Both the position numbers and the translations under genes were made by a program. Positions 4,645-54,829 of a stretch of DNA of 64,000 nucleotides are shown here, piece after piece. The notes under the pieces were generated by a model. That model ran no database searches. It was given only the letters and a program-made list of their open reading frames with translations, and was not told the DNA's origin. How positions within the stretch are numbered: the stretch's first letter is position 1; every line of letters begins with the position of its first letter. Source of the DNA: Eledone cirrhosa (Eukaryota); NCBI GenBank assembly GCA_964016885.1, contig OZ024743.1, positions 230,516,001-230,580,000 of the forward strand, given 5' to 3'.

Positions 4645-6297
4645 CATTTTGTTTTTGGAGAGGGAAGGAAGAGGACTTTTTCTTTTTGGGGTTCTTTTTC
4701 TTTTTTTCTTTTTTCCTGATACAGTTTCCCACTCCTCGTCGTCACAATCTGTCTCCAGTTGCGATAGGTCGGGGAGTGGAAAATCCTCCACAGTCGTTGG
4801 TTTTGGTTGTGGCGTGGTGGATGGTGGAGGCGCTGGTGCTAATTCTGGCGCGGTGGGTGGTGGTGGTGTCGGTTTTGCTACTTTTTCTGGGGTTGCTGCT
4901 GCTACAGTTGCTTCTGTTGTTGCTCCCATTTCTGCTGCTGGTGGTGTTGATGGTTGAGCCACTGGGGTGGGTAAGAGAGGTGGCCTCAACTTTTTAGCAT
5001 GAGGGCAGAAAGCCTTTAGGTGGTTTCTTTCATCACAAACGACACACCTAGGCCTTCTACCCTTAACGATTACGGTGAGGTGGCTGCCGTCATTGAGGTC
5101 TATCACCTCTGGATTTTCCTCAATGTTTTTTTGGTCCCCTTGGATCAGGAGCACCATCCCAGATCCGGACCAGTTCTCCTGCTTTTCTTTTGTTACTTCA
5201 ATTATTTTCGTGTTGGCTTCAATGCCGGCGAGGACGACAGCCATTAAACAGGGGTATTCGATGGCCGCTGGAACGTGGGTCAACCTGATCTTCACGAGTC
5301 TCTGACCACAATAGCTTGGGACAAGTGTGAAGTCGTCACTTCATAATGGGGTCATGTAATCCTATCTGGCTTCCTGTGGTGTTCCAAAAAAACACGTCCA
5401 CAGTTCCATATTTCTGCCCACGTCTGATGTGGTGGTTTTTCGCCCACACATGTCCCACAGTTTTATATTTGGGACTCGGATGCCCGTTCCAATCGGCGAA
5501 ATTTTGTATATAAGTGCCAATGCTCCATTTAATTAGGTGGGGGTGGGGTGGGGGTGAGGCTGACTCTGTGCCTACCTTTTTTTACCATTCTCTTGGCTTC
5601 ATTTAATTAATCCTGGCTTACCTCAATTGTTTCGCTTTTCTTGGCTGCTTTGGCAAACGACACATTTGCGCTGGTGTTGATGTTTTTGTTGTTGTTCTCA
5701 TTGTTGTTGTTGCTGTTGTTGTTATTGTTATCTTTATTATTGTTATTTTTAGTTTCAGTGGTGGTGGTGGTGGTGGTTGTGGTGGTGGCGTCAGTGGTGT
5801 TTGACGTGGAAGAGTCCATTCTGCGTGAATCCATTTCGATGTCACGAGATAATACTTTTTTGGGTTTTCTGTTGTCGCTGTGGTGGTGGTGGGGGTGGTT
5901 GCTTTAACACCTGCAGTTATTGGTAATGGCGGGAAATGAATGTCTGCATGTGACAAATTTAAATTATTGCCACTGCTTATATTTTTAGTGTTGGCAACCG
6001 TAGTAATATTTACAATGGTGGTGTTGGTGTGAGGTGTTAGTTTGTCAGGAAGGCTGTCAGTTTCGTGTGGCTCTGAGGCGTCCATGATTTTTTTAAAGAA
6101 AGTTTTTGTTTGATAATTATAAAAGTTTAAATTTGGGGCTCAAGGCCCCAACTTTTTGAGTGTCTTTTTCAGAAAGCAATATATGTGAACTTATAAAAAC
6201 TTAACAACAAAAATGTTCCATAACTGGCAATTTGAAACAACTGAAAACAACAAAACTTTGCGGAGTTCACGATAATACGATTTCTACGTAGGAGACC
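4645..6297 (-). mobile_element. Tx1-group LINE copy 1: 5'UTR and ORF1 only, 3' part lost
   Basis: Colinear with the 5' part of copy 6 (54611 downward); knuckle CVVCDERNHLKAFC; 5' end abuts (ATT)n 6298-6333; similarity to copy 6 stops at ~4645. Confidence 0.88.

Positions 6298-6333
<36 letters not shown>
6298..6333. repeat. (AAT/ATT)n array joining the 3' end of Tx1 copy 2 to the 5' end of copy 1
   Basis: Direct observation. Confidence 0.98.
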
Positions 6334-6334
<1 letters not shown>

Positions 6335-6596
6335 GTTTCTTTATTGGCCACAAGGGCTAACACGAAGAAAACAATTTTAGACGGCAGAGAACAGTACAGG
6401 ACGATACAAATTGGGTTTTGGTCGTGTAAACAAGTTGTAACAAAATTGGGCTAGAAATCAAAAGAATTCAAACAACAACAATTCCCAATATGGAGGAAAC
6501 CTCCGAAGCTCACACGTTGCGAAAACTACACAAAAAGGCCACGGCCACGCTAACTACCAGGGCACGCGCCCTCTCTTACTTTTCCCACTCCTCAGT

Positions 6597-9500
6597 CTAC
6601 AGTCGCATACTCAGAGCGGGCCCGTTCACTCGTACTAGACTCGCCACTTTCACCCACCTTTCAACAAACATACTAGAAGACAACACTTGCCTTTCCACAC
6701 TGATTTTCCTCTTCAAATGAAACTTGAAAAAGTTAATCAGGGATTGGCCGAAGAGGAAAGTGTCCTTCTTCAACCCTTTCAACCTTGTCCACCACACAAT
6801 CTCTTTAGCCATGGCCACCAGGTAGATGAAAACTGCCTGCCCTTCCTCCTCTTTAACGGAGGATGGCGGGGCTATCTGCAGAATGGACTCAGTCGATAAC
6901 CGGATCCGTCCTACACGCGACAGCAGCTGTTCGACATAGCTCCACATGTCAGAAATCCTCGGGAACTGAACGAGTGCGTCCAAGACGGTTTCTTCGCCCT
7001 GCGCGCATCACGGACAGGCTCGGCTGACAGCACCTCTTTGCCTGTAGAGCTTATCCAGAACCGGCAACGCTCCCCGGTAGCACTGCCAGGCCAGGGATTT
7101 TTGGAAGTTATCCATAGGCCCTGGACTGAATGTTCTCCGGAAGAGAGCAAACAGCTGATCGTCTTCGACGCCCAGCGCCTCAACGAGCATGTCATCGCTC
7201 TTTCCCTCCACTAGCCCTCTATAGAATGCCAAGGTGGATGTTCCACCAATATTTGTGCCCAGCTGCTAGAGCCAGGTGAGCGCTTGGAGACATTCCAGCT
7301 CCCAAGCGCTATCTCTTGGTCTTTTCCTGATCCAGGACGGCATCTCCGTCAAGGAGACGAGCTGGGGAAAAGCGCGTTTGGCAAACGGTGACCACACCTG
7401 TTCACCGCCAAGGAAGCACCAGAGACGTCGCAGCCTCAGCGCATGTTTGTTCATCATCAGCCACAGCATGCCTAGTCCTCCACGCAACGGGTGTTGACAG
7501 CAAATGGATCGTCTGACCATGGGAGCACGTCTCTTTCTCAAAAAGCGGAAGAGAAGGCACTCCATTTTGGTCAGAGTTGGGCGTGGGCGGTAGTAGATGA
7601 CGGATGCTAAGTACGCATTCGCCACCTCCGCCCGACCTTTCAGAAACATCTTCCTCTCGGCCCATTTCTGGGTGAGAGAGGCCACCCTGTTTGTCACCTC
7701 GCTCCTGTTTTTCTTCATCTGGAGGTCCGGAGCGAACGAGACCCCGAGCAATTTAACCGGTCCTTCCCTCCAGTGCCCAACGAATGCAGTCGGAAGGCAT
7801 GGACTTTCCTCTCCAGGTGCCGAGTTGCAAGCCCACACACTTTTCCTCGTTTATCTTTTCTCCTGTCACCGCTTCGTATTTCTTGATTGCGGTGTCGAGC
7901 ATTTGGACGTGTTTGGTGCTCGACACGACCACCGTGACGTCGTCGGCTTAAGCTGACACGGATCTCCCGCATCCCAGTTCGCGTGGGACTCCCTCATCGT
8001 CTCCAATTTGTGTAGTAACGGCTCGTGTGCCAGTACGTACAAGAAAGACGAGCGGTGGCAACCCTGGCGGACCGAGGGCATGATACTGAGCGGCTGCGAC
8101 AGGTGACCATTCACCCTCACAATCGAGCAGATGTCGCTGTGCATCGCAGTGATCCAGCTACTAAAAGCGGGCCCGAAGCCGGCCGCCTCAAGGACCGCAA
8201 CCAGGTACCGATGGTCGACCCTATCAAATGCTTTAGATTGATCCAAGTTGATCAGGGCCCTACCCGTGCCAGGTTCCTTAACCACCCTCTCTATGATGTT
8301 TCGCATGAGATGGAGGTTGTCGTGGATTGATCTGTCCGGAATGGCGCATGTGTGCGATCTACCACCAGGTCACCGATGACAAGCACCAATCTCTTTGCTA
8401 ACACCTTGGCCAAAATCTTAAACTTTGCGTTTAGCAGAGTTAGGGGCCTGAAGTTGTCTATAACGCCCCCCTTGTTTGGGTCTTTTCTCAGCAGCGCCAC
8501 CGCTCCCCGGCTCACAAAACTGGGAATGATCCCCTTCTGCTGCCAGTTGCAGTAGACCTCTGCCAATAGGTCGCCGAACTAGTCTGGCATATGCGCATAA
8601 AGTTCATAAGGCAGACCATCCGAACCTGCGGATTTACCCCTCGTGAAATCAGACATCGCTTCCCGTATTTCACCTGCTGTCATCGGCTTTTTGCAGCACT
8701 GTGCTGCGGTTGTCGAGAGCCGCGGCAGTCCGTCGAGGTATGCACCGAAGTCCATACTCTGATCCGCCCCGCCGCCGCTCCCGAACAATTGAGCAAACTG
8801 CTGTTGAAGAAAAGCCACACACATCTGCTCGGTTTCGAGCAACATGCGCCCGTTTTCATCAGGCAAATACCGAATTGTTGACTTGTTGCCACGTCGACCC
8901 CCCACCACCCGAGCCCATTGGACGTATTTTGTCCCCTCGTGTTTCAGAGCACGCGCTCTAGCTCCGACAACGCAGCCTTCATGTTTTGCGTGGAAGAATT
9001 GGTCGAGTGCCAATCTCGCCGCAAGCATATCGGTTGTGATGTCTGTCCTAAACGCCTCTTCTAGCTTTCTAACTAACCCTCCCTCTACTCTATTTTCCTC
9101 TATCACTACTCCTTTGCTAAACCTTATCTACTCTAATATCCCTTCAAGGGTAAACCACCACCTGTTGTTGTCGATCGCAGCCGTCAACGCACGCTTAACT
9201 AATTCGCTAATCCTGTCTCTGTATGCTTTGCGTGCCGGGAACGACCCATTCAGCTTCCAGTAGCCGGACCCTTGCTTATGGAGTCTATCTAAGTCAACAT
9301 CACAGGTAACAAATTTGTGGTCCGTGTAGTCGACTACTTTAAATTGTGGACAACCTACACTAGCTTTATCTGTTTCCCTACAGAATACCCTATCTAAATA
9401 CGATCTGAATTACCCGATGCGGTTTGCTCATGTCCACGTTGGCACATTCGGATAATCCAGTCTATACCTGTCAGGCAGTTAAAAACGTCTCAGCAGGTTG

Positions 9501-9995
9501 TTGAGGCTTTTAATCCCTCCTGCCCTGTCTACTAGTCCCACATAATCCCAGCATCCATCTAAGATACCGTTCCAGTCGCCCCTAACACTAAATAGCGGGA
9601 CGTTCCAAGAAAGATCTCTAGACGTCTGAAGAAATATGCCCGTCCTGTCTCTGTTGGGGCGTAGACGGCTACTAGCCTGAAAGTTTTGCCTTCGCTGCCG
9701 GTCACATCCAGCACCCCCAACTTACCTTCTGGATCCAGGAAGATGGCTCGTATGGCGAGATCCAAGCCTCTCCGAAAAAGCACAGCAACTCCTCCCCCGA
9801 TCCTGGACGGCTGGGAGATGCGTATATATCGTAGCCGCCGAAAATCAGTGCGAAGGCTCGTGCTTCGGAGATTCTGGTCTCGCTGATGGCCACCACATCT
9901 ATGTTTAGTGACCTGTGGTCGTGGAGCAGATGACCGTGCTTCCAAGAAGATCCCAGGCTACATACATTTATACTGCCTATTCTAAGTACGGCTAT
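6597..9995 (-). pseudogene. ORF2 of copy 2 (AP endonuclease, reverse transcriptase, CCHC), frameshifted
   Basis: VAISETR, VAVYAP, KSAGSDGLPYE, FRPLTLLN, DQSKAFDRVDH, VRQGC, VKLLGV, LRGGLGM; start codon mutated to ATA at 9995. Confidence 0.92.
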
Positions 9996-10024
9996 GTTGG
10001 ATGAGAAATGGGGTAATAGAAAAG

Positions 10025-11941
10025 GATCACTTACCTTGATCGTGTGGGGAAGGGACAGTAGAACCGTCCCTTTAACAGGTCATGGGTGTTTCCGATAGGA
10101 TATCGGCGTATATCCTCTTGGTAACCGACCCTCTGAAGTCTCCAACTGCGTTGGGGAATTTTTCTTTTAAAAGTTTATGTTCTATTTTAATTTCAATGAT
10201 GCTTATCTTTTCCGGGACAGTTCTTGTGTTGGTGGGGTGTAGCAATTTTTTTTTTCTGTGATGTCTTTGTGCTGTTTTATATGTTGTAACAGTTCTTTAT
10301 TTGCCATGTTGATAGCTGTGTACTTTTTGGTGGGAGGGGTGGTTTTGTTGCTGTTTTCTTCTTGTTGCTGTTGGGTATATGTGCTTTGTTGTGTTTGCGA
10401 TGTTAGTGTTTTTGGTGATGCTGGTGTTGATGTGGTTGTTGTTGATAGTGATGCTTGTGGTGGTGATGGTGGTGGCGCTAGTGGTCGTGGTGGTGGTGGT
10501 GGTGGTGGTGTTGCTGCAGGTCTCCTTGCAGCCTTTACCACTCTTTGTTTGGCCTTTGCTTTTAGAGGGTGAAGCTTATCACTTCCCTCCCGCCTCAATC
10601 TCCATGTCGAATTCCGTGGCGTTTGGGAGGGGTATGAGCTGCACTGCTGTTGGTGGTGGTAATGGAGCCCGCTCCGGTGATTTTGCCGCCGTTGTAGTTA
10701 CTGCGACTGTTGGTGTTTCCGCCACTGCTGCCACTGTTTTAGTTGTCCGTGGCCTTGTTATGGATGCCACGGTCGTTGCCCTCCAACTCACCATGGAAGG
10801 GTCTTCTTTGGCTGACTTCTGTGGGCAGAAGGCCTTGAAGTGACCCTTTCTGCCCACAGAGATAGCACTTTGGGCGCGCTTATAGGGAGCTGGAGTCCTT
10901 TCTCGAGGTCTATGATATCTGGGATGGCCTCGATGCACTCATTTTCAGTTTGTATTAGCATTTGCATGCCTATTCCTGGTCAGTTCTCTCTTCCCATTCT
11001 CTGTATTAGCAGTATGGTGGTCTTCTTCTCGATTCCAGCATATACAGACGTGGCCAGCCAAGGTGTGGGCACCTCGAGCGGGACTTGGTCACTTTGACAC
11101 TCACAATTTTCTGCCCGCAGTAGGAGGGCACCAAGACTATCTCCTCACTCTTTAGGGTTTCCAAAGAGTGAGACTCCGCCTCTTACGGGGTGGCGAAAAG
11201 TACGTCTAATGTGGCGTACTTTTTGCCTCGGTGATGTGGGTTTTGCGCGCCCAGACGCACCCCAAGGCCTTTTGGATTTGAGCCTCCATGGCTCTCTCCA
11301 CCGGATGTGACATTTTGCTTTCGGTGCGGTAAGTCACCATGTGCAGCTGCTGGTCTTTGAAGAAATCAGGTGGAGGTTTCAGGGAAACTCTATTCTCATG
11401 GCTCTTGCGACTGCCATCTCCTCCGTGACTTTCACTATCTCTATATTTCGGGCCACACCTGCGAAAGAAGTGGCCCCTTTTTCAGCAGCGCTATTATTGC
11501 TGCCGCTACTGCTGCTACTGGTCTTATTGTTGATGCTGTTGCTGTTGCTACTGCTACAAACGGTGTTGTCGGTGTTGTTGCTGTTATCACTGTTGTAGTT
11601 GCTATTTTTTTTGGTGCCACCGTTGTTGCTGTTTTCGGTGCAATTTGTATTGTTGCTGTTGGTGTTGTCACTATTTATTTTCTTATTAATGGTGTTAATA
11701 TCGTTGTTGCATTTGTTGTCATTTTTTTATGTTGTCTGTATTTTTGTTGTCGCTGTTATTGTTGTAGTTGGCGTGGTAATTTTTTTTTAAAACTAGTGTT
11801 CTCAGTGTTGTTGTCTTTCTTGACGTTATTTGTGGTGGTGTTTGTTGTATCAATTTCTGTGTTCGCCGTAACCCTCCTCTCAACTTTTACGCCGTTGTCA
11901 CACGACAGCAGATATATTGCTGGGGGACGTGGCTCAGCCAT
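10025..11941 (-). pseudogene. ORF1 of copy 2 (Asn/Thr-rich N-terminus, RRM-like core, CCHC knuckle, Pro/Thr-rich tail)
   Basis: MAEPRPP start; core ..QIQKALGCVWARKTHIT..KKYATLDV..VLVPSYCGQKIV; HFKAFC; KEKFPNAVGDFR. Confidence 0.85.
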
Positions 11942-12155
11942 GTTTTTATTTTATTTTTAAAAGTAAAAGGTTCAAATATTTGGGCCAATAGGCCCAAATA
12001 TTTTACTTTCTCCTTCGCAGGGCGAAGTCCAAGGTCTTATATTCCTTACACAACAAGAACAATTTAACAACAAATAATTATAGCAGGTAAATAAAACGAC
12101 TTACTGGGAGCGAGCAAAAAGACGTCCAAACAGACCAATAATAATAATATTAATT

Positions 12156-12334
12156 GTTTTTTACTTTTGGCACAAGGCCAGCAAACACCCAGTGTATTAC
12201 TGGTACTTTATTTTATCGACCCCGTAACGATGAAAGACAAAGTTAACCTCGGCGGGATTTGAACTCAGAATGGCAAGGGCCGTAACTCTACGCGTCAAAG
12301 CATGGCGACCGACCCTCTAGCAATACTGCCATCC
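12156..12334 (-). mobile_element. tRNA-derived SINE with (ATT)n tail
   Basis: Reverse complement has A-box-like tggcagtattgctag, B box gagttcaaatcc, core ttgtctttcatcgttacggggtcgataaaataaagtaccag and tail ggccttgtgccaaaagtaaaaaacaatt. Confidence 0.88.
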
Positions 12335-12339
12335 AATAG

Positions 12340-12477
12340 TAATTATTTCTACTTTTGGCACAAGGCCAGCAATTATCACAGTGTATTACTGGTACTTTCT
12401 ATTACTGGTACAGTGTATTACTGCCATTCAATAATAATAATAATTGTTTCTACTTTTAGCACAATAATAATAATAAT
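12340..12477 (-). mobile_element. Stacked 3' stubs of the same SINE within (ATT)n
   Basis: Stub 12341-12400 reads agtaccagtaatacactg..ggccttgtgccaaaagtagaaataatt; stub ~12445-12463 reads tgtgctaaaagtagaaaca and is flanked on both sides by (att)n. Confidence 0.75.
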
Positions 12478-13238: not shown

Positions 13239-13481
13239 TAAATGAAGTATTTCCGTAGGAAAGGTAAAGGAAAAGAGAGTACTCTATGTAGGGTAGAGAA
13301 CTTTGTAGTTATGTAATAAACAACATAAGATAATTCCATGGTGTATGTTGGTTAATTTCCTGAAACTGTAGAATGCTGAAATTATCGAGCTGGAAGGTAC
13401 CAATCATATATGTAATATAGAATATGCTCCTACATAGAGCACTCTCTTTTCTGTTTCCTTTCCTACGGAAATTCTTCATTT
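13239..13481. repeat. Inverted repeat, ~55-bp arms
   Basis: aaatgaagtatttccgtaggaaagg..gagagtactctatgtagg pairs with cctacatagagcactctc..cctttcctacggaaattcttcattt. Confidence 0.8.
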
Positions 13482-13683
13482 AAACAGTTCCCACCGGGAA
13501 TAAGTGAGCTCGTAAGTTTGTTTTCTTCAACGGTTTGAAATACGTTTGTCATTAATATTTTTGTTTCAAACGGGAAATAAGACTTTAGTCTTTTCCCTCA
13601 AGAAAGGACTCTCCATAATATTTGGGCCTTTTGGCCCAAATATCTTTCAATTTAAAAGAAAGTTTTTATTAAAAAAAAAAAAC

Positions 13684-15730
13684 ATGGCGTAGGCACGCGC
13701 CCCAACTTTGACTTCGCTGTCTTGCGACAGCGATTCAAACGTTGAGATTAATAACGCTCCTCCTCCCACAACAATTTTAAAATGTAACAACACATCAGGC
13801 AATATCTCCAACAACAGCACCAACAACAGTGAGAACAAAAATGACAACAGCAGCGACAGCGACATTACCAAAGACATTAAAAAAAAAACAGTCGTGAACA
13901 AGAACGACAACAGCACCAGCGACAACTTTTCACAACAAATCCAACAACAACTGCAATAATGACAACAACACCAACAACAGAAAGAACGACAACAAAGACA
14001 AGAATATCAACAACAGTGACAATCACAACAACAGCAACAATAACAATAGCAGCAGCAACAATATCAACGAAAACAACAACGAAATTAACACCACTAACTA
14101 GAACATGAACAGCGACAGCACCAACAACAACAATACCAACTGCACCGAAAACAACAATAACGGCGGCACTAAAGACAACAATGATAACAGCAACAGTGAT
14201 AATAGCAACAATACCAACAACAACAACGACAACAACAACAACACCAACGACAAGAAGAAGAACACTTTCGCTGCGGCAGCAGCCAAAAACAGGCCATGCT
14301 TCAGTACGGACCTCTCGAAGGAAGATGAAAAGTTGGCCCAGGCCTGGATGCTCATCAAACAAGGGCAAACCTTGGCCAACTTAACTGCCCCGGTAGAAGC
14401 TATTGAAGCAGTGGAGCGCAGAACGGTACATTACAGATGCATCTCAGCGGAAACTAAGAGGGCAGCTTTAATTCCACAAGCAGATGTCGAAGTCGCGCTG
14501 AGGTGCATCAGGGATGACACCGAATACATAACGAGGGGCAGACAATACGGTACCATTTCGGTGCTGTTTAAGTCAGAAGCACTCGCTATGAAACATGCTA
14601 TGACACCTTGCAAAACCAGCAAGGTCATAATGTACCCCTCCCTCATGGGAAAAAGATCGGCCCGTCTCCGCATTCCCAGAATCCCACCAGGACTTGACAT
14701 GTGGTGGCTTTTGGGATGTGTGGAGGGGACGGATACCATCCCGATAGAAGTAACAAGAACTGCCTAAGAGGATTGGTCCGGGGTTGACCTGGAGATACTT
14801 CTCCAGATCAGGCCAGAGAATATCAAAACAATCGCGGTCCACATCCGTCTTCAGAACGGGACGGTCATTCACATTATGACCGAAGGGAAAAGGCCGGATT
14901 GTTTCGTTTGTGGAGAAAAAACCCATTTGCGAGCCTTCTGCCCTCAACACATGAAAGATGCAAGGGGTTGAAGGGCTCCACTGCTGCCGACGAAAGGACG
15001 AGGACCACAACCAACACCAGCACCGGGAAAACCACCAGCAACAACACCAATAGAAAAACCAACACTAACATTAACCACCCATGGGGGGAAACGAGGAAAG
15101 TTGCCCCCCCCCCCCTCCTCCAACACACACATCAATAAAAATAAAATCACACACACAGACGCAGACACAGTTACAGACACAGACCCCTCATCTACCAGTA
15201 GTGAAGATGAGGGAAAACCAAAATCCCCTAAAATACAAAAAAGGAAACACAAAAAGAAAAAAAAACTCAACAAAGCACAAAAACACCCACAATAAAAAAT
15301 GCAGACACCACCCACGCAAACATCTCCCCAACAACACCAACATCAACACCACCATCACCATCACCATCACGAGAATCCCCCAAACGCAAACAACCTAAAC
15401 AGACGCAAGAACAAATACACACACAAACATCTGAAACCACAGACACCGCACTCACAACAAATACAGACAGCACCGAAACAACACCATCAAAACCATCACC
15501 ACCATAGCCACGCAAACAAATAAAAACCCACCAACAAAACATACAAAACTTCGTGCTCGTCAGGAGGGCCAACAAGGAACTGATGGCCCTCATAGCACGA
15601 AGTGAAGAAATACAAAAAGTGGGGGAAATATTTAAATCGAGCACATATCGTGTGCCGGAAGATTTGCTTCTGGTGCGAATGTCACTCGATTTATGCAAAG
15701 AGATACGAGACAGCTTTCCTCGGGATGTAA
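13684..15730 (+). pseudogene. ORF1 of copy 3
   Basis: Asn-rich N-terminus, TFAAAAA motif, core YITRGRQYGTISVLF..IPRIPP, CCHC knuckle, stops and frameshifts; 3' end approximate. Confidence 0.82.
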
Positions 15731-15763
15731 GTAAACCTTTCCTCTCACTTTTAGCCTGCCAAC

Positions 15764-42320: not shown

Positions 42321-42364
<44 letters not shown>

Positions 42365-42365
42365 G
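42222..42365. repeat. (TTC)n followed by (AAT)n
   Basis: Direct observation. Confidence 0.98.
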
Positions 42366-42840
42366 GCCAGAGGCGGTGATGGAGAACAATCAGGTGAAGG
42401 TGCTGTGGGATTTTAGGATACAGACGGACAAAAAACTGGAACACAATAGACCTGACCTGGTGGATGTGGACAAAGAAAAAAGATCGTGCCTGATTGTGGA
42501 TGTGGCCTGCCCGTTCGACACGAGAGTGCAAGAGAAGGAGAGGGAGAAAATTAACCGATACCAGGACCTAAAGTGGGAGGTGAAAAGGATTTGGAACTGC
42601 CATGAAGTCAAAGTGATCCCGATTGTCATAGGCGCACTGGGGACTATCTCCAAAAGTTTCCAGGGATGGTTAAAGAAAATCGGCCCCTTCACGCTTTTTG
42701 GAACGCTTCAAAAGGCATGCTTGCTTGGAACAGCAAGAACCCTCCGATACGTCCTGAATATCTGAGGCTGCAGGTAGTGGCTTGATATTCAATCCAACGG
42801 ACTTTCCAGTTAACCAACATCAATGACTGAGATTCAAGGA
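42366..42840 (+). mobile_element. 5'-truncated R4/Dong-like element (REL endonuclease and 3'UTR)
   Basis: Open frame 42376-42765 ENNQVKVLWDFRIQTD..HNRPDLV..IVDVACPFD..EKINRYQDL..PIVIGALG..LQKACLLGTARTLR; (TAA)n on both sides. Confidence 0.92.
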
Positions 42841-43105
42841 ATAATAATAATAATAATAATAATAATATAAATGATTTATTTATTAACCACAAGGGTTTAC
42901 GTAAAGTAGACATTAAGGACAGTGTAGGACAATACAGGACGGTACAAACGGGCATTTCTGCGTGTAAAGAACAAAAACAGAGGATGTAACAAAAAAATAA
43001 CAATGAAAAATTCCCCAATAGGGGGGAGACTTCGGAGGGACATTTGTGGAGGAAGCGATCCTGACCCCCAAGGCAAGTGCCCTCTCCCAGTTTTCCACCT
43101 TTAAT

Positions 43106-46100
43106 TTAGAGATAAGTACTCAGAGTAGGCCCATTCACTCGGGGCATGCTTGCTTCTCTCACCCATCTTTCAACAAAATGCTGGGAAGAGAGCACATCCC
43201 TCTCTACTCAGGGCATCACCGAAGAGGTAAGTGCTCGTCTTCAGCCCTTTCAAACGTGTCCACCATACTATCTCTTTCGCCATGCCCACCAGACAGATAA
43301 AAACTGCCTGCCCTTCCCGGCTAAAGGAATAAGGCGGGGCAATCCTCACGATGGACTCAGATGATAGCCGGATCCGTCCTACACGCGACAGCAGGTGTTC
43401 GACATAAACCCACAAGTCAGCAATTTTCGGACACTGGACGAGTGCGTGCAGGACGGTTTCGTCGCCCTGCGCGCATCTCGGACATGCCCGGCTGACGGCA
43501 CCTCCATGCCTGTAGAGTTTATCCCGAACTGGCAAGGCTCCTCGGTAGCACTGCCAGGCCAGAGATTTCTGCGGTCCCGGCCCGAAAGTTCTTCCGAAGA
43601 GATTGGCTAGTTGATTTTCGTCGACGCCTAGAGTTTCCCCAAGTACGTCGTCGCTCTTCCCCTCCACTAATCCTCTATAGAACGCCGAGGTAGAGTTTCC
43701 ACCGATCACATTGCCCGATTGGTCGAGGGCTGTGAGCGCCTGAAGACATTCCAGTCTCCAGGCGCTCCCTCTCGGTCTTCGCTTGACCCAGGACTGCAGC
43801 TTCGTCAAGGAAACGAGCTGGGGAAATACGTGTCTAGCAAACGCCAACCACACCTGATCACCGTCGAGGAAGAGGTGGAAATGTCGTAGCCTGAGCGCGT
43901 GTCTGCGCATCATCAGCCACGGCATTCCCAGCCCTCCACGTAGCGGGTGTTGACAGCAGATAGACCTCCTGACCATCGGAGCGCGTCCCTTCCACAAAAA
44001 GCGAAAGAGCAAACGCTCCAGCGCAGTCAGGCGGGGCTTAGGACAAGGTACGACGGTCAGGCGGTAGCAGATGACAGACGCAATGTACGCGTTAACCACC
44101 TCTGCTCGACTTTTTAGGGATAGCTTCCACTCCGCCCATTTCTGGGTGAGAGAAGCCACTCTGCTCGTCACCTCGTCCCAGTTTTTGTCCGTCTGGAGGT
44201 CCGGACCGACCAGACCCCTAGCAATTTAACCGGTCCGTCCGTCCAGCGTCCGACGATGCTGTTGGACGGCATGGACCTGCCTCTCCAGGTGCCGAACTGC
44301 AGGCTCACTGACTTTTCCTGGTTGACCATTGCTCCTGTCACCGCTCCGTATTCGCTTAATGAAGTGCCGTTCGCCTCGATGTGTTTGGCGTTCGACACCA
44401 CTACGGTGGCATCGTCCGCATATGCTGACACGCATCTTTCGCATCCTAGTTCGCGCGGGACGCCCCCCAGCGTCTCCAGTTTGTGCAGTAATGGCTCGAG
44501 AGTCAATACGTACAAGAGGGACGAGAAGGAACATCCTTGGCGGACCGAGCGCATGATGTTGAACGGTTCAGACAGGTGACCGTTCACTCTCACCACAGAG
44601 CAGATGTCGCTGTGCATGGAGGCAATCCAGCCTCTGAAGACGGGCCCAAAGCCAGCCGCCCTCAGGTCTGCCGCTAGGTAACGATGGTCGACCCTATCGA
44701 AAGCTTTCGACTGATCTAAATTGATCAAGGACCCACCCGTCGCAGGTTCCCTAGCTACCCTCTCTACGATGTATCGCATGAGGTGGAGGTTGTCGTGGAG
44801 GGATCTGTCGGGAATGGCGCATGTCTGCGCCTCTCCCACCAGACCACCAACGACAAGCGCCAACATCTCTGCTAGCACCTTGGCCAAAATCTTGAACTCT
44901 GTGTTTAGCAGCGTTATGGGGCGGAAATTATCTATGTTATCCCCCTTGTTCGGATCCTTTCTCAGCAGTGCCACCGCTCCTCGGCTCACAGAACTGGGAA
45001 TTCTCCCGTTCTGTTGCCAGTTGCAGTAGACGTCCGCCAAGAGGCCTCCGAACAAGTCTGGCATCTGTACGTAAAGTTCATAGGGCATACCATCCAAACC
45101 AGGCGATTTACCCCTTGTGCAGCCAGTCATTGCCTCTCTTACTTCAGCGGCTGTTATCAGCTTTTCGCAACACTTCGCCTCAGTGGCCGAGAGCCGCGGC
45201 AGTCCGTCGATGTAGACACTAATGTCCATCCCTCGACCCGGCCCACCGCTGCCCCCGAACAGCTGAGCGAAGTGTCGCTGAAAAGATTCACACATTTGCC
45301 CAGGATCGAGTAGCATGCGCCCGTCGTGGTCCACCAAAGACCGGATCGTGGCTTTGTGCCACGACGCGCCTCCCCCACTCGGGCCCATTGAACGGCTTTC
45401 GTCCCCTCGTGTCTGAGAGCACGCACCCTTGCTCTGACAACGCAGCCTTCGTGCTTTGCATTGAAGAATTGGTCAAGGGCCAATTTCGCCGCAAGCACGT
45501 CGGTCGAAATGCCTTTGCTAAGCGCCTCGTCTAATTTTCTAACTAGTTCTCCCTCTGCTCTATTTTTCTCTATTGCTAAAGCCTTACTAAACCTAATCGA
45601 TTCTATTCTAATCGCTCTTTTCAGAGCAAACCACCACTTGTTGTTGACGATGCCCCCCAACAACGCCCGCTTAACTAGTTCGCTAATCCGGTCCCTGTAG
45701 GCCTTGCGCGCTGGTAAGGACGCGTTTAGCTTCCAGTAGCCGGGTCCTCGTCTATGAAGCCTATCTAAGTCAAGCACACAGATCACAAATTTGTGGTCCG
45801 TGTAGCTGACTATCTTGAATTGTGGACAGCCTATGCTAGACCTAGCTATTTCCCTACAAAATACTCTATCTAGATATGATCTGGATGACCCTATGCGATT
45901 TGTCCAAGACCACATTGGCACATTCGGGAAATCCAATCGGTACCTGTCAGACATTTCAAAATGCTTGAGCAGGTTGGTGAAGCTTTTACACGCTCCACCC
46001 CTATCCTCTAATCCCACACGGTCCCAGCGTGCATCTAAGATCCCGTTCCAGTCGCCCACTAACACTAAAGAGCGGGACGTTCCAAGAAAGGTCTCCAGAC

Positions 46101-46473
46101 GCCGGAAGAAATCAGGCCGCCCTGCTCCTGTCGGGGCATAGACGGCCACTAGCCTGAAAGCTTGCCCGTCTACGCTGGTCACCTCCAGCACCACCAACTT
46201 ACCCTCTGGGTCCAGGAAGATGGCCCGTATGGCGAGATCCAAACCTCTCCGAAAAAGAACAGCAACTCCTCACCCCGATCCAGGATGGCTGTGAGATGCG
46301 TACACATCCTAGCCGCCGAAGATCGGTGCGAAGGCCCGTGCTTCGGAGATTCTGGTCTCGCTGATGGCCACTACATCTATGTTTAGTGATCTGAGGTCGT
46401 TGAGCAGGTGACCCTGCTTCCATGACGACCCCAAGCCACGCGCATTTATGCTGCCTATTCTGAATGAGGTCAT
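43106..46473 (-). pseudogene. ORF2 of copy 5 (APE-RT-CCHC), few frameshifts
   Basis: ATG at 46473; LVGDWN, SYLDRV, YTDH, KSPGLDG, FRPITLLN, DQSKAFDRVDH, VRQGC, SAYADD, CPRC..ETVLHALVQC. Confidence 0.95.
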
Positions 46474-46508
46474 GTTTAAAATAGAGTGGATAAGATGGGA
46501 AAGACCAC

Positions 46509-48615
46509 TTACCGTACTTTTCGTAGAGGAGGGATGGTTTTTCCATCCCTTTTCACTTGATCGTCTGGTGAAGGGACCGTTGAATCGTCCCTTCGGCTGG
46601 TCGTCGGCTCTTCTATGAGTATGTCCGAATATACACTCTTCGGGTGATAGTTCCTCCTAGGTCTCTGAAATTACCAACTGCTTTTGGGAATTTCGTTTTA
46701 ATGTTTGTGTATTGTTTCTGTGCTATTTTTAGCAGTCTTATGTTAGTTGGCGTTTTGATTGGTGCTGGTATTATGTAGTCGTGTTGTGAAATGTCTGTGT
46801 GTTCAATTATATAAGTCATTAGTTTCTTGTTGTGTGTATTTATTGCCGTGCATTTGTTTTTCTGGGGTGGGTTGTGGTTCTGCTATTTTCTTGTCGTTGT
46901 TGCCGGGTGTGTGTGTTTTCTTGTTGTGTTTGCGATGTTGGTGCTTGTGGTGGTGGTGTTGAAGGTGTTGTTGGCGGTGGGGTTGTCGCCGGTGGTGATG
47001 GTAGTGCTAGTGTGGGTGGTGATGGTGTTGGTGGTGTTGCTGCTGTGAGTCACTTTGCAGTAGACTTTACCCTTTTTTATTTCTTTCCTCCCTTTTCAAA
47101 GGCAACGATGCGCTGCTTCTGCGTTTGTGCCTTCTTACGACATTTTGCCATCCCTCTCACACCTCACACTCCATGTCTGATTCTGTGAGGTCGGGGAGGG
47201 ATACCAGATCCACTCTTTCACTTGTTGTTGTTGGTGATGTTTGCACTGGAGTCTCTGTTGCAGCTGCATTTCGTATTGCCGTTGTCGTTGTTAATACTTC
47301 CACTGCTGCTGCTGTTTTTGATTTCCGTGGCGTGGGTATGGGTGCCACGGACCTTTCGTTCCTGGTTGCCGCTTGTCTTGTTGCTGGTAGCTGTGGAGCC
47401 GGTTTCGGAAGGAGGGGGGTTTTCTCCTTTCTCAGGGTCTTCTCGTTGCAGAAGGCCCTGAGGTGAGTCTTCGATCCACAGCGAAAGCATTTCGGGCGTT
47501 TGCCCTCAACAATTATGGGCAGTTGAGTGCCGTTACCGAAGTCTATCACATCCGGGATAGCTTCGATGCACTCCTGGTTGGTTTGGATTAACATCTCAAT
47601 GGAGGTGCCGACCCAATCTTCTCTTACTTCTTTATGTACTTGCAGTACAGTTGTTTCGTCCTCGATTCCGACGAGGACAGACGCGGCTAGCCAAGAAGGG
47701 ACCATCCGGGGGGTGGGGGGCGGGGGTCAGTTTGACCCTCACAATTTTTTGCCCGCAGTAGGAGGGCACCAACACCATTTCCTCGCTCCTTAGGGTCACT
47801 ACGGATTGAGCGTTTGCCTCCTGGGGTGTGGCAAAAATTACGTCTACGGTGGCATATTTCTTGCCTCGGGTGATGTGCGTTTTCCGCTGCCACACAGACC
47901 CCAAGGCTTTTTGTATTTGAGACTCTGTGGCTCTTTCAACCCTACGGGATTGTGTACTTACTGTACGGTACGTGACCGTACAGTGCTGTTGGGTTTCGAA
48001 AAATGTTTCCGCTGCCTTGCAGATTGCTCGGTATCCAGTTTTTGTCACCATCTTCTTCGCTTCCTCTAATTCCTCATTTGTTATGAGGATTGTTTCCAGG
48101 TTCTTCGCGATACCTGCAAACGAGATTGGTTTTTCTTTGCTGCTGTTGTTGTTGTTGTTGTCGTCAGAGCTGCTGTTACTTTTGTTGCTGCTGCAGGTAC
48201 TACGACTACTGCCGCCGCCGCTGTTGCTGTGGTTGTTGTTGTTGCTGCTGCTAATGCTGTTGTTGTTTATGCTGCTGGTGATGCTGTTGCGGCTGCTACT
48301 GTTGTTTTCATTGTCACTGTTGATGTTGTTATTACGGCTGCTATTGCTATTATTCCTGACGTCAGACGAATGAAATGGGTTTTCGTATTTCCCGCACACC
48401 TGTTTCGTCGTTGTCGTCGTCGTCGTGGAGAAATCTTGCACGCTTTGCACGAGACTTTTCTTTTCTGTCGTCGCTTGCGAAAGAGAAGTGAGGGAGAGAG
48501 ACACATTTAAAGAAGGGAGGGAGAGAGACAATCTTCACTCTGCTGTAGTGACGATTGAGGAAGAAGAAGACGGAATGAGTGGGAGTGACCTATGAACATT
48601 CTTTTTCGTAGCCCT
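46509..48615 (-). pseudogene. ORF1 of copy 5
   Basis: ORFs 47632-48531 and 47157-47705; SFAGIAK motif, RRM-like core, CX2CX4HX4C; start codon appears mutated to AGG. Confidence 0.88.
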
Positions 48616-49093
48616 GTTATTTTTTTTGTTTAAAATACATGTTGGGAACAAAGCCCCAATAAGCAGTTATTTAACCCCGAAGGGCCAAACAACGGACAGA
48701 AATACCCCTCTCACGAGGAGGAGGGTGTTTTTGTCTACAAGTTGGTTAAAGTTTTAAACAATTTACAATTGTTATAGCGGTCAAAATTTACAATACCTTA
48801 CAGAGCCGAGCCTCCGTCAACCATAGCATTCAATATTGATTACTTTATTAACCACAAGGGTTTACATAAAGTATACATTAAGGACAGTGCAGGACAATAC
48901 AGGACGGTATAAATGGGCATTTCTGCGTGTAAAAAAACAAAAAAAAAACAGAGGGTGTAACAAAAAATAACAATGACAAATTCCCCAATAGGGGGGAGAC
49001 TTCGGAGGGACATTTGTGGAGAAAGCCCAGTAAAAAGCCACAATGACCCTGACCACCAAGGCAAGTGCCCTCTCCCAGTTTTCCACCTTTAAT

Positions 49094-52000
49094 TTACAGA
49101 TATATACTCAGAGTAGGCCCATTCACTCGGGCCATTCTTGCTTCTCTCACCCATCTTTCAACAAAATGCTGGGAAGAGAGCACTTCCCTCTCTACTCTGA
49201 TTTTCCTTTTCAAATGAAATTTGAAAAAGTCAATCAGAGCATCACAGAAAACGTAAGTGCTCGTCTTCAGCCCTTTCAAACGTGTCCACCATACTATCTC
49301 TTTCGCCATGGCCACCAGACAGATAAAAACTGCCTGCCCTTCCCGGCTAAAGGAAGATGGCGGGGCAATCCTCACGATGGATTCAGCTGATAGCTGGATC
49401 CGTCCTACACGCGACAGCAGGTGTTCGACATAAACCCACAAGTCAGCAATGCTCGGACACTGGAGGAGTGCGTGCGGGACGGTTTCGTCACCCTGCGCGC
49501 ATCTCGCACATGCCCGGCTGACGGCACCTCCATTCCTGTAGAGTTTATCCGAACTGGCAAAGCTCCTCGATAGCACTGCCAGGCCAGGGATTTCTGGAAG
49601 TTGTCCATAGACCCAGGCCCGAAAGTTCTTCCGAAGAGATTGGCTAGTTGATTTTCGGTGGAGTTTCCACGTTCACATTGCCCGATTGGTCGAGGGTTGT
49701 GATCGCCTGAAGACATTCCAGTCTACAAGCGCTCACTCTCGGTCTTCGCTTGACCCAGGACTGCAGCTCCGTCAAGGAGACGAGCTGGGGAAATATGCGT
49801 CTAGCAAATGGCGACCACACCTGATCACCGTCGAGGAAGAGGTGGAGATGTCGTAGCCTGAGCGCGTGCTGCGCATCATCAGCCAGGGCATACCCAGCCC
49901 TCCACGTAGCGGGTGTTGACAGCAGGTGGACCGCGTGACCATCGGAGCGCGTCCCTTCTACAAAAAGCGAAAGCGCAAACGCTCCAGCGCAGTCAGGCGG
50001 GGCTTAGGACAAGGTACGACGGTCAGGCGGTAGCAGATGACGGACGCGATATACGCTTAAGCCACCTCCGCACGACCTTTCACGGATAGCTTCCTCTCCG
50101 CCATTTCTGGGTGAGAGAAGCCACCCTGCTCGTCACCTCGTCCCAGTTTTTGTCCGTCTGGAGCTCCTTACCGAACCAGACCCCTAGCAACTTAACTGGT
50201 CCGTCCGTCCAGCGCCCGGCGACGCTGTTGGACGGCATGGACCTGCCTCTCCAGGTGCCGAGCTGCAGGCTCACTGACTTTTCCTGGTTGATCATTGCTC
50301 CTGTCACCGCTTCGTTTTCTCTTAGTCTAGTGCCGGTCACCTCGATGTGTTTGGCGTTCGACACCACTACGGGGACATTAACCGCATATGCTGACACGGA
50401 TCTTCCTTATCCTAGTTCGCGCGGGAGCCCCCTCAACGTCTCCAGTCTGTGCAGTAATGGTTCGAGAGTCAATACGTAGAGGGACGTGAATATATAAGAG
50501 GGACGAGAGGGGACATCCTTGGCGGACCGAGCGCATGATGTTGAACGGTTCCGAAAGGCGACTTTTCACTCTCACCACAGAGCAGATGTCGCTGTGCATG
50601 GCAGCGGTCCAGCCTCTGAAGACGGGCCCAAATCCAGCTGCCATCAGGACTGCCGCTAGGTAACGATGGTCGACCCTATCGAAAGTTTTCGACTGATCTA
50701 AATTGATCAAGGACCCACCCATGCCAGGTTCCCTAGTTACCCTCTCTACGATGTATCGCATGAGGTGGAGGTTGTTGTGGATGGATCTGTCGGGAATGGC
50801 GCATATCTGCGCCTCTCCCACCAGACCACCAACGACAAGCGCCACTTCTTTGCTGGCTCCTTGGCCAAAATCTTGAACTCTGTGTTTAGCAGAGTTATGG
50901 GCCTAAAATTATCTATATTATCCCCCTAGTTCGGATCCTTTCTCAACAGAGCCACAGCTCCTCGGCTCACAGAGCTGGGAATTCTCATGTTCTGTTGCCA
51001 GTTGCAGTAAACGTCCGCCAAGAGACCTCCGAACAAGTCTGTCATCTGTACGTAAAGTTCATACGTCAGACCATCCAAACCAGGCGATTTACCCCTTGTG
51101 CAGCCAGTCATTGCCTCCCTTACTTCAGCGGCTGTTATCGGCTTTTCGCAATGCTCCGCCTCAGTGGCCGAGAGCCGCGGCACTCCGTCGAGGTAGACAC
51201 TAAAGTCCATCCCTCGACCCGGCCCACCGCTGCCCCCGAACAGCTGAGCGAAGTGTCGCTGAAAAGATTCACACATTTGCCCAGGATCGAGTAGCATGCG
51301 CCCGTCGTGGTCCACCAAAGACCGGATCGTGGCTTTGTGCCACGACGCGCCTCCGCACTCGGGCCCTTTGAACGGCTTTCGTCCCCTCGTGTCTGAGAGC
51401 ACGCACCCTAGCTCTGACAACGCAGCCTTCGTTCTTTGCATTGAAGAATTTGTCAAGGGCCAATTTCACCGCAAGTACGTCGTTCGCGATGCTTTTGCTA
51501 AGCGCCTCGTCTAATTTTCTAACTAATTCTCCCCCTGCTCTATTTTTCTCTCTTGCTAAAGTCTTACTATACCTAATTGACTCTATTCTAATTGCTCTTT
51601 TCAGAGGAAACCACCACTTGTTGTTGACGATGGCCCCGTCAACGCCCGCTTAACTAGTTCACTAATCCGGTGTCTGTAGGTCTTGCGCGCTGTTAAGGAC
51701 GCGTTTAGCTTCCAGTAGCCTGGTCCTCGTCTATGAAGCATATCTAAGTTAAGCACACGGATCACGAATTTGTGGTCCGTGTAGCTGACTATCTTGAATT
51801 ATGGATAGCCTATGCTAGACCTATCTATTTCCCTACATATACTCTATCTTGATATGATCTGATGACACAACGCGATTTGTCCAAGTCCACATTGGCACTT
51901 TCGGGAAATCCAATCGGTACCTGTCAGACAGTTCAAAACGCCTGAGCAGGTTGGTGAGGCTCTTGCACCCTCCTCCCTTATCTGCTAATACCACACAGTC

Positions 52001-52450
52001 CCACCGTGCATCTAAGATCCCGTTCCAGTCGGCCACTAACACTAAAGAGCAGGACGTTCCAAGAAATGTCTCCAGAAGCCGGAAGAAATCAGGCCACCCT
52101 GCTACTGTCGGGGCATAGACGGCCACTAGCCTGAAAGCTTGCCCGTCTCCACTGGTCACGTCTAGCATCACCAACTTACTTTCTGAGTCCAGGAAGATGG
52201 CCCGGCCCATATGGCGAGATGCAAACCTCTCCGAAAAAGCACAGCAACTCCTCCCCCCGATCCCGGACGGCTGGGAGATGCCTACACATCGTAGCCGCCG
52301 AAGATCGGTGCGAATGCCCGTGCTTCGGACATTCTGGTCTCGCTGATGGCCACTACATCTATATTTAGTGAGGTCGTTGAGCAGGTGGCCCTGCTTCCAT
52401 GACGACCCCAAACCACGCGCATTTATGCTACCTATTCTGAGTGAGGTCAT
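49094..52450 (-). pseudogene. ORF2 of copy 6
   Basis: MTSLRIGSINARGL, VAVYAP, KSPGLDG, DQSKTFDRVDH, RQGCPLS, CARC..HALLQC. Confidence 0.93.
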
Positions 52451-52484
52451 GTTGAAATGGAGTGGAAAAGATGGGAAAGACCAC

Positions 52485-54409
52485 TTTCCTTACTTCTCGT
52501 AGAGGAAGGATGGTTTGTCCATCCTTTTCACAGCTTGTGGCCTCCTCCGGAAGGATGTCCTTATAAATCCACCTGGAGAGTGTTTGTCGGAAGTCTCCGA
52601 TATTTTTGGGGAATTTTTGTTTTAGTGTGATGCGAGTGATTTGTATGTGTTGAGGTGATGTGAACTTTTGGGTTGTTGTGTTGTCTTTTTCTGTGATGCT
52701 GGTGTCGTGTTGGATGTAGTGTAATGATTGGTTGTTGTTCAAATTTAATGCTGTGTAGTGTGTATCGTTTTGGTTGTTTTGTTTTGGTTGCGTTTGTTTT
52801 GGGTTTGTTTCTGTTACGCTTTTTGGTGACTTTTGTGGTGTTGGTGATGGTGGTGTTGGGTTTAATGATGATGATGGTTTTGGTGTTTGTGGTGATGGGT
52901 TTGGTGATGCTGGTGTGGATGGTGGCATATCTGTCCTAACTTTTTTGTTTGATAATTTATTTGTTTTCCTCTGTATTTTGTTTTTGGAGGGGTAGGGAAG
53001 AGAATTTTTTTCTTTTTTGGTTTCTTTTTTTCTTTTTTCCTGACACCGTTTCCCACTCCTCGTCGTCACAATCGGTCTCCAGTTGCGATAAGCCGGGGAG
53101 TGGAAAATCCTCCACAGGCGTTGGTTTTGGTTGTGGCGTGGTGGATGTTGTAGGCGCTGGTGCTAGTTCTGGCGCGTTGGGTGGTGGTGGTGTTGGTTTT
53201 GCTACTGTTGCTGCGGTTGTTATTGTTGCAGTTGCTCCTGTTGTTACTGCTACAGTTGTTGCTGCCATCTCTGCTGCTGGTGGTGTTGATGGTTGAGTCA
53301 CTGGGGTGAGTAGGAGAGGTGGCCTCAACCTTATAGCCTGAGGGCAGAAAGCCCTTAAGTGAGTTCCTTCACGACAAACGACACACATAGGCCTTCTGCC
53401 CTCAACGATTACGGTGAGGTGGCTGCCGTCAGTGAGGTCTGTTACCTCTGGGATCTCCTCAATGCTTTTATGGTCCGCTTGGATCAGGAGCTCCATCCCA
53501 GATCCGGACCAGTTCTCCTGCTTTTCTTTCGTTATTTCGATTATCTTGGTGTTGGCCTCGATGCCGCCGAGGACGGCAGCCATTAGCCATGGAATTTCGA
53601 TGGCCGGTGGAATGCGGGTCACCCTTATCTTCACGAGTCTCTGGCCACAATAGCTTGGGACGAGTGTGAAGTCGTCACTTCTTAATGGGGCCATGGAGTG
53701 TTCTCTGGCCTCCTGTGGTGTTTCAAAGAACACGTCCACGGTTCCATACTTCTGCCCACGTCTGATGTCTGTTTTTTTTGCCCACACATGTCCCAAAACT
53801 TTTTGGATTTAGGAATCGAATGCCCGTTCCCCCCGGCGCGATTTTATGTTAATTGTCCGATAAGACACGGTGCTTAGGCGACGATGCTCCATGTTATTAG
53901 GTGGGGGAGGGGATGACTTTATACCCATGTTTCTTTACCATTCTTTTGGCTTCTTCTAATTCCTCCTGAGTTAACTGGATCGCTTCGCACGTTTTTGCTA
54001 CTCTGGCAAAACTCAGGGTAGTTTTCTTAATTTGATTGTTGCTGTTGTTGTTATCGTTATTTTTGTTATTGTTAATTTTAGTTTCAGTTGTGGTGGTGGT
54101 GGTGTCAGTGGTGTTCGGTGTGGAAGAGTTCATTTTAGTTGAATTCATTTCGATATCACGAGTTAATTTATTTCTTTCTTTTGTTTCTGTTGTCGCTGTG
54201 GTGGTAGTTGGGGTGGCGGCTTTAACACCTGCAGTCATTGGTAATGGCGGGAAATGAATGTCTGCCTGAGACAAATTTAAAATATTGCTACTGCTTATAT
54301 TTTTAGTGTTGGCAAACGTAGTAATATTTACAATGGCGGAGTCGGTGTGAGGTGCGTAAGTTTTTGAGGAAGGTGTGACACTGAGTCGGCCATGATTTTT
54401 CAAAGACAT
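52485..54409 (-). pseudogene. ORF1 of copy 6
   Basis: ORFs 53897-54409 and 52957-53796; LSFARVAK, RRGQKYGTVDVFF, CVVCREGTHLRAFC, KQKFPKNIGDFR. Confidence 0.88.
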
Positions 54410-54829
54410 TTATTTTTTTTTTGATAATTATAAAAAGTTTAAATTGTGGGTTCAAGCCTCCAATCCTTTTGAGTGTCTTTTTCAGAAATCAATGTATGTG
54501 CACTTATATACAGTTAACAATAAAAATGTTCCATAAATGGCAATTTTAAACAACTGAAAATAACAAACCTTTGCGGAGCTCACGATGATACGATTTACTA
54601 CGTAGGTCGTCAATAATAATAATAATAATAATAATAAGGTTGATGATTAGGAGGAGGATGACATTGACGACTATATTAATGATTAGGATGATGATGGCAA
54701 CGATGATTATAATATTAAATGTCATAAATTGAGAAATATTCCAAAACTAAACAAGAACAAGAAATATATATATATATAAAGATAAATAGCAATATAAACC
54801 AACGAAAGAATTGGCGGAATCAATAACAC

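Follow-up and report, generated by a model that had tools for sequence, protein, structure and literature searches.

A LINE lineage of Eledone cirrhosa, likely of Tx1 type, appears to insert at a short ATTAT motif, to fill (ATT)n arrays and probably to mobilise an abundant SINE

Among the targets of Tx1-type long interspersed nuclear elements (LINEs), PMC4494074 names, in the parts consulted, Tx1D, U2, (TC)n, (TTC)n, (TTCC)n, (TTTC)n and other transposons; it counts an element as microsatellite-specific once over 20% of its flanks fall in a single type of repeat, and proposes Tx1-Mar as the motor of SINEU, a short interspersed nuclear element (SINE). Dong inserts in TAA repeats, as reported in the consulted part of PMC1635306. 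In octopuses, L1-Tx1 elements, Dong-R4 elements and SINEs are abundant (PMC13282606, PMC8967140), with SINEs and L1-Tx1 abundant and recently active in Octopus vulgaris (PMC13282606), and the consulted parts of both papers name no targets. Here we describe a LINE lineage of Eledone cirrhosa, present as six copies, 68–91% mutually alike, in a 64,000-base stretch of its genome (assembly GCA_964016885.1, contig OZ024743.1, positions 230,516,001 to 230,580,000 of the forward strand; hereafter the window), together with a SINE that lies among these copies.

Our reading, to which we give a probability of about 0.75, is that this L1-group and likely Tx1-type LINE inserts at the motif Y^ATTAT(T) with target-site duplications of about 16–19 bp, fills (ATT)n arrays in one polarity, and likely mobilises an abundant SINE that lacks a tail of its own. 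The flanks, duplications, motif, polarity and common 3′ end on which the reading is built were observed directly. Microsatellite-preferring Tx1-type elements and Tx1-driven SINEs are already known kinds; the new parts are the ATTAT target, the common structured tail and the length-dependent use of arrays. The literature searched, Repbase and Dfam entries lying outside that search, contained neither an ATT-targeting Tx1 element nor a description of this LINE–SINE pair; the "TX1" encountered in the consulted part of PMC4176376 is the name of a mutant and irrelevant to Tx1 LINEs.

The association with ATT extends across the 3.0-Gb genome. The 5′ ends of copies 5, 1 and 2 were used as queries against it, and 30 loci each were taken from the 40 best matches, the window copy being excluded. 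A copy was scored as preceded by ATT when the nine bases before its first G matched (ATT)3, in any phase and with at most one mismatch. Among these best-match loci, 29/29, 27/29 and 28/29 copies of the three subfamilies passed, giving 84/87 overall. Because only 0.29% of 399,640 background positions pass the same nine-base test, chance is excluded as an explanation. The copies with ATT at their 5′ ends are spread over many chromosomes, and all 20 long subfamily-A copies that were fetched whole carry ATT on both sides. To avoid end bias, 20 copies were also chosen by an internal stretch of the reverse transcriptase (RT). Fourteen of them are full length, and each of the 14 begins ATT|G after at least six ATT units; among the remainder, two truncated copies follow ATT, three do not, and one extends past the region. 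An earlier note on the window had asked that intact 5′ ends be scored genome-wide and had named mostly non-ATT flanks as the result that would overturn its proposal of ATT targeting, a result that did not occur. Residence in arrays differs by length class, with 97% for full-length copies, 40% for truncated copies and about 20% for SINEs (6/29), and both the full-length (84/87) and the truncated (18/45) LINEs lie above the 20% mark for microsatellite-specific elements. Twenty subfamily-C copies chosen for their short 5′ arrays (20/29) were too rearranged for duplications to be read, nine of the 20 being without a 3′ end.

The nature of the target emerges from truncated LINEs and from SINEs. Ninety loci were picked by three kinds of LINE 3′ end, and the 45 with a 5′ junction within 1.5 kb were analysed. 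ATT stands at the 5′ junction in 18 of the 45 (background 1.6%). Duplications of at least 11 bp are present in 25/45 and are non-repetitive in 12/45, compared with 17/1980 (0.9%) in a mismatched-pair control, and nearly all of the unique duplications, which follow the final base of the element without a gap, open with ATTAT or TATTAT. Because 12/45 truncated copies carry non-repetitive duplications, ATT is target and not tail; because these duplications are unique beyond their first five to six bases and match on both sides, the sites were never arrays. Several truncated LINEs, and most SINEs, have no ATT outside the duplicated target. Among the 29 closest SINE copies, 26 show duplications of at least 11 bp and 22 of these are non-repetitive (control 24/812). 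A second set, of 116 full-length SINEs from all loci collected by then, yielded 46 unique duplications, 12–22 bp long as called (mode 19, one mismatch allowed) and 16–19 bp by eye. These duplications all have TTA at positions 2–4 (46/46), preceded at position 1 by A in 43 cases and by G in three. The base before the site is C in 22 insertions, T in 18, A in four and G in two, compared with 14% C and 45% C or T before background ATTAT outside arrays, figures that are rough and skewed by one repeat. The three duplications with G start GTTATT, and since this G occurs on both flanks, as seen for two of them, the flank is target DNA.

Together these junctions define what we read as the target, a short motif, Y^ATTAT(T), or (A)ATAAT^R on the bottom strand, for which (ATT)n is the richest sink. 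The earlier note had regarded (ATT)n itself as the target: its genome-wide link to the lineage and the presence of ATT in the target stand, and the microsatellite as such does not, given the isolated ATTAT sites with unique duplications. For truncated copies inside arrays, the junction phase is mixed in the few cases available. At one locus (L093) the upstream SINE inserted after the LINE and duplicated the LINE's first bases, an order of events that kept us from reading the site as it was before LINE insertion out of the duplication of an upstream SINE.

The SINE is very common, with 30 matches in 200 kb of random DNA, and its 3′ end resembles that of the LINE. The word CTTGT occurs in 28/30, 26/27 and 29/29 LINE ends of three subfamilies and in 24/30 SINE ends, and it lies 16 nt from the end in nearly all subfamily-A, subfamily-C and SINE copies and 16–17 nt from the end in subfamily D. 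In the predicted stem around this word, the first pair is C–G throughout the LINEs and the SINE; the second is C–G in the LINEs and G–C in the SINE; and the third is A–T in subfamily A and G–C in subfamilies C and D and in the SINE. When the last 26 bases of the SINE were aligned to LINE tails, 0/2000 shuffles scored as well against the C tail and 3/2000 against the D tail. The same bases showed no similarity to the Dong-like tail that was tested (1686/2000 shuffles as good). The two elements have two of the marks of a stringent LINE–SINE pair, namely a common 3′ end with a conserved predicted stem-loop and the same insertion signature, and the SINE was likely mobilised by this LINE. The SINE head contains A- and B-box-like words by eye; ARAGORN gave no match and Rfam only chance matches. 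The SINE appears to resemble the common octopus SINE; octopus SINEs include OK, OR1 and OR2 as well as tRNA-Core/Deu and Meta-type families. At four loci (L022, L036, L105 and L219), the ATT arrays are immediately preceded by the end of a different repeated element in same-sense orientation, which may be a further passenger of the LINE.

Chains of LINEs and SINEs share one polarity. For the 87 full-length copies, the upstream neighbour is a same-sense LINE end in 22 cases, a same-sense SINE in 22, a reversed Dong-like piece in one and some other sequence in 42; in no case is it an opposite-sense LINE. For 82 LINE ends, the downstream neighbour is a same-sense SINE in 16 cases, a same-sense LINE piece in 10, a reversed Dong-like end in 12, a reversed SINE in one and some other sequence in 43. 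At L044 and L045 (G000:C28:82.50–82.51 Mb), two 3′ junctions lie 6,017 bp apart with identical flanks, possibly a tandem duplication of a whole unit.

By the sequence of its proteins, the lineage is a member of the L1 group of retrotransposons without long terminal repeats (non-LTR elements). The second open reading frame (ORF2) of one copy, L133, is open for 1138 amino acids and contains APE endonuclease, RT and zf-RVT domains recognised by Pfam. The order of an N-terminal APE, an RT and a C-terminal cysteine/histidine region in ORF2 is that of the L1 group, as are the 5′ truncations and the target-site duplications of variable length. Compared with solved structures, L133 ORF2 is nearest to L1 ORF2p (E 2e-51, residues 4–854), with R2 at E 4e-20, in a match list that contained no CR1, RTE or Jockey proteins. 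Within the L1 group, a Tx1 label is plausible. Homolog, cluster and Atlas searches returned only unnamed or generically named proteins and no named Tx1 protein, and the label therefore derives from the architecture of the element, its preference for a target and the proteins near it in a quick tree. In that tree of 36 rows, built without named anchors, the window copies form one clade (support 100), sister to unnamed proteins and surrounded by fish, lancelet and sea-cucumber elements. Preference for a target sequence is a Tx1-clade feature that the lineage displays. Another such feature is a CCHC zinc knuckle in ORF1, where a CX2CX4HX4C motif is visible and Pfam gives no match. The hairpin loop of the endonuclease has 10 residues between its anchors, the L1 length, versus 12 in the Tx1L graft (2v0r); the long loop is a feature of Xenopus Tx1L and is not known to define the clade.

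Some copies still have frames as long as ORF2, with open frames of 1204 amino acids in L133 (1743–5354), 1204 in L300 and 1139 in L297; the first RT aspartate motif of L133 has N in place of the D of copy 5. Half or more of the sampled words from L133:1743–5156 are present in sequencing runs of eight further organisms, and pieces of the untranslated regions of the LINE were also matched in three contig sets. The ORF2 words may point to close relatives or to horizontal spread, both being possible; among the runs listed as holding them, none was an RNA run. A fourth type of head, absent from the window, follows ATT arrays at L285 (about 2.8 and 5.5 kb upstream of the 3′ end) and L286, and is perhaps the head of subfamily D or of another subfamily.

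How insertion might proceed can be sketched from these features. The APE domain would nick the bottom strand at 5′-(A)ATAAT^R-3′, a pyrimidine–purine step as for L1; the freed 3′ end would prime reverse transcription, beginning at the terminal base of the element, and the duplication would come from a second nick 16–19 bp away. The last base of the LINE is C, and after it comes the duplicated ATTAT. Each insertion would in this way restore C^ATTAT, the site with the best score, at its 3′ junction, and the next copy would land head-to-tail behind it. The idea of the earlier note that every insertion regenerates its own target is thus supported. An array would offer one site per three bases on one strand only, which would fix the polarity. 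ORF2 would recognise the small 3′ stem-loop, with the loop CUUGU, common to LINE and SINE. Read-through (AUU)n at the ends of the RNA may also pair with the target, a possibility that we rate at roughly even odds. Such pairing would explain why no poly(A) is copied, why full-length copies are nearly confined to arrays and why their phase is fixed, full-length copies keeping ATT|G although the length of the duplication varies. As alternatives to AUU pairing, long copies at unique sites could be selected against, or the second nick could be specific for phase. A fuller picture, which we offer tentatively and at somewhat below even odds, would have an undescribed ATT-targeting Tx1-type lineage act through the CUUGU stem-loop as motor of a SINE that ranks among the most abundant of the genome, with AUU repeats at both RNA ends confining full-length copies to (ATT)n, and with the LINE, the SINE and an opposite-strand Dong-like family building and sharing self-renewing ATT landing pads throughout the genome.

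The RNA could have a larger part than this. With a loose endonuclease, a read-through AUU at the RNA 3′ end might itself choose the site by pairing with nicked AAT, as PMC6007223, in the part consulted, proposes for RTE-type elements. Nearly all parent copies are followed by ATT, so that their transcripts would carry AUU; only 6–7 nt separate AATAAA from the array that follows, and poly(A) is not copied; and 3′ arrays are longer at long copies than at short copies (28/37 versus 21/45, p=0.012). We nevertheless consider a choice of site by RNA pairing unlikely. The pre-site base is C or T in 40/46 SINE insertions, though the SINE ends in A and this base lies outside the primer, and the three sites that start with G would leave a mismatch at the 3′ end of the primer; both observations argue that the enzyme sets the site. 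Strict specificity of the LINE for the (ATT)n microsatellite, with the isolated sites as rare errors or decayed arrays, would accommodate the 84/87 and 14/14 full-length copies that follow arrays. It is quite unlikely in view of the 12/45 truncated LINEs and 46/116 SINEs whose unique duplications lie at sites that were never arrays, and for truncated copies it is largely refuted.

The SINE, in turn, might be moved by another LINE, Dong/R4-like or RTE, with which it only shares arrays. Dong/R4-like ends do abut the same arrays at 12/82 LINE 3′ ends, Dong inserts in TAA repeats (PMC1635306, as above), and the families compared with the SINE were this LINE and one Dong-like tail. That tail, however, is unlike the SINE tail (1686/2000 shuffles) and has the opposite direction, and the start and polarity of the SINE duplications match the L1-group LINE, which makes a different motor very unlikely. 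Finally, ATT could be a templated tail only and the clustering a local accident, the window being some 12 times richer in the LINE than random regions. To this we assign almost no probability, and it is already refuted by the occurrence of 5′ ATT on many chromosomes and by the several truncated copies and most SINEs that have no ATT beyond their duplicated target.

Several points nonetheless count against the reading that we prefer, insertion at Y^ATTAT(T) by an L1-group LINE that also moves the SINE. The 5′-end searches returned only the 40 copies nearest each query, the query from copy 5 (subfamily A) included one T of its array while the other two included none, and the background comprises only 200 kb, in which a repeat skews the context of ATTAT. 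From the 90 loci, four without AATAAA were dropped, as was L199, by hand, and the rest of those dropped lay beyond 1.5 kb. No ATT is found at the 5′ junction in 27/45 truncated LINEs, and 20/45 show no duplication of at least 11 bp, perhaps through deletions or insertions that came later; of the 12 duplications called automatically, two or three are doubtful (L059, L202, L220). The last 26 bases of the SINE have a weak match to the A tails, equalled by 32 and 88 of 2000 shuffles, and the stem, which is predicted, has only 3–4 bp, in which each paired change represents one evolutionary event. A nicking motif alone does not explain why arrays hold 97% of the full-length copies and 6/29 SINEs. 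In addition, the nick, priming and RNA-end steps are read from genomic sequence alone.

In the window the LINE occupies 30,115/64,000 bases (47%), compared with 7,593/200,000 (3.8%) in 20 regions at round-number genome positions (200 kb in total), a density about 12-fold higher, and Pfam recognises pieces of APE (Exo_endo_phos), RT (RVT_1) and zf-RVT. The earlier note had proposed that regeneration of the target explains why about half the window is Tx1; regeneration contributes to the 47% density and may not account for all of it, the copies forming three separate blocks. Copy 1 (4530–6297, minus strand, low end approximate) is a 5′ fragment with a type-B head and ORF1 region, without ORF2 or 3′ end, and is 80% identical to the 5′ part of copy 6. 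An (ATT)12 array (6298–6333, minus) joins its first G to the 3′ end of copy 2 (6334–12136, minus), a full-length but degraded member of subfamily C with RVT_1, 74–77% identical to copies 4–6. An interrupted ATT run (12137–12155, minus) separates copy 2 from the 3′ end of a SINE of the same polarity (12156–12331, minus), which is 87% identical to the SINE at 19462–19645; upstream of it lie SINE 3′ stubs and two (ATT)5 runs (12346–12477, minus).

Copy 3 (13560–19343, plus, 5′ limit approximate) belongs to subfamily D and is 68–70% identical to the other copies; no head could be identified in it and there is no ATT on its 5′ side. Just upstream, at 13239–13482, lies a pair of 54-bp inverted repeats, possibly a miniature inverted-repeat transposable element. 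From copy 3 runs a same-sense chain, copy 3, stub, SINE and copy 4. The stub is a 30-bp 3′ end of subfamily A (copy-4/5 type; 19353–19382, plus), a 5′-truncated insertion, and is followed by (ATT)23 with three more units (19383–19460, plus), by the SINE of about 185 bp (19462–19645, plus), with no tail of its own and a 3′ end like that of the LINE, and by (ATT)5 plus ATG (19646–19663, plus; the (ATT)5 at 19646–19660). Copy 4 (19664–25504, plus) is a full-length subfamily-A element with Exo_endo_phos and RVT_1, 85–86% identical to copy 5. The ATT arrays preceding copies 2 and 4 are thus 3′ flanks of the SINE.

An ATT array (25505–25533, plus) joins copy 4 tail-to-tail to a 5′-truncated LINE fragment, apparently of the restriction-like-endonuclease type (25534–26000, minus), with (TAA)n flanks. 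A second such fragment (42365–42839, plus) lies between (TAA)n at 42300–42364 and 42840–42867 and abuts copy 5 in the same tail-to-tail manner, so that the arrays after copies 4 and 5 are common to oppositely directed elements. Both fragments appear Dong/R4-like by restriction-like-endonuclease motifs in their translations, which have no Pfam support; the (TAA)n on both sides was observed. Copy 5 (42873–48831, minus), of subfamily A, is full length with Exo_endo_phos, RVT_1 and zf-RVT, and its first two ATT units are degenerate. The linker AATATT (48832–48837, minus) joins it to copy 6 (48838–54611, minus), which has a B-type head and ORF1 region, 80% identical to copy 1 at the 5′ side, and an A-type ORF2 and tail, 91% identical to copy 5 in ORF2; an (ATT)8 array (54612–54637, minus) precedes its first G. 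The same combination of B-type head and ORF1 region with A-type ORF2 and tail is found in L274–L277, L292 and L305, which suggests exchange of 5′ modules between subfamilies.

The junctions described in the earlier note are as it gave them. ATT arrays directly precede the first G of copies 1, 2, 4 and 6, the run before copy 2 being interrupted and copy 4 having ATG for its last ATT; copies 2, 4 and 5 end AATAAA-N6 and then ATT, with no poly(A); the end of copy 3 (19343) precedes the 30-bp stub and (ATT)23; and the joints between copies 2 and 1 and between copies 6 and 5 are (ATT)12 and AATATT, in the same polarity.

Elsewhere in the window, two more SINE copies lie within 31778–32237 (31791–31965, minus; 32096–32232, plus), and a PIF1 helicase fragment (36677–37321, minus; Pfam E 3e-30) is possibly of Helitron origin. 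A 367-amino-acid frame at 694–1797 (plus) has no Pfam hit; by its motifs, the end of this frame appears to resemble a Penelope GIY-YIG region. At 60581–60895 lies a 93-bp tandem repeat of 3.4 copies with 88% matches.

These findings would add ATT, or ATTAT, to the target list of APE-type LINEs and place within one lineage a state intermediate between the loose motif of L1 and strict site specificity. They also link a SINE of very high abundance to its likely partner LINE through a common structured tail, an unusual trait in the L1 group, suggest how repeat hotspots might arise in large animal genomes, and offer a small natural endonuclease, with a putatively defined motif, for testing how specificity originates. 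Kibi, Koshi and the crocodilian (TTCC)n and (TTTC)n Tx1 elements of PMC4494074 (parts consulted) are likewise L1/Tx1-group LINEs of the APE type with a preference for a microsatellite. Compared by target and not by tree, those elements of fish and crocodilians use (TC)n, (TTC)n, (TTCC)n or (TTTC)n, whereas the Eledone LINE uses ATT, a motif of five to six bases being enough. The crocodilian pair Tx1-Mar and SINEU is, in the same source, likewise a Tx1-type LINE proposed to move a SINE by a shared target, with tandem insertions around a duplication; there, however, the target is a Mariner transposon and the link consists of shared target, age and small nuclear RNA (snRNA)-derived heads, whereas the Eledone pair is linked by a common 3′ end with a predicted stem-loop. 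For octopus SINEs, the consulted parts of PMC13282606 name neither a partner LINE nor a target. Dong, of the R4 clade, and Rex6 use TAA repeats (PMC1635306, part consulted), the same microsatellite read from the other strand, and Dong-like fragments share arrays with the Eledone LINE; they differ in having a restriction-like endonuclease and the opposite polarity, whereas the Eledone LINE has an APE domain. The hairpin loop of that endonuclease is of L1 length and two residues shorter than the Tx1L loop in 2v0r (PMC1950540, part consulted). The likeness to human L1 and Alu lies in the nearest solved ORF2, the ordinary duplications and what would be a short-motif nick at a pyrimidine–purine step. 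In contrast, L1 nicks TTTT/AA and copies poly(A), whereas the Eledone LINE would nick ATAAT/R, copies none and seems to rely on a 3′ tail with structure.

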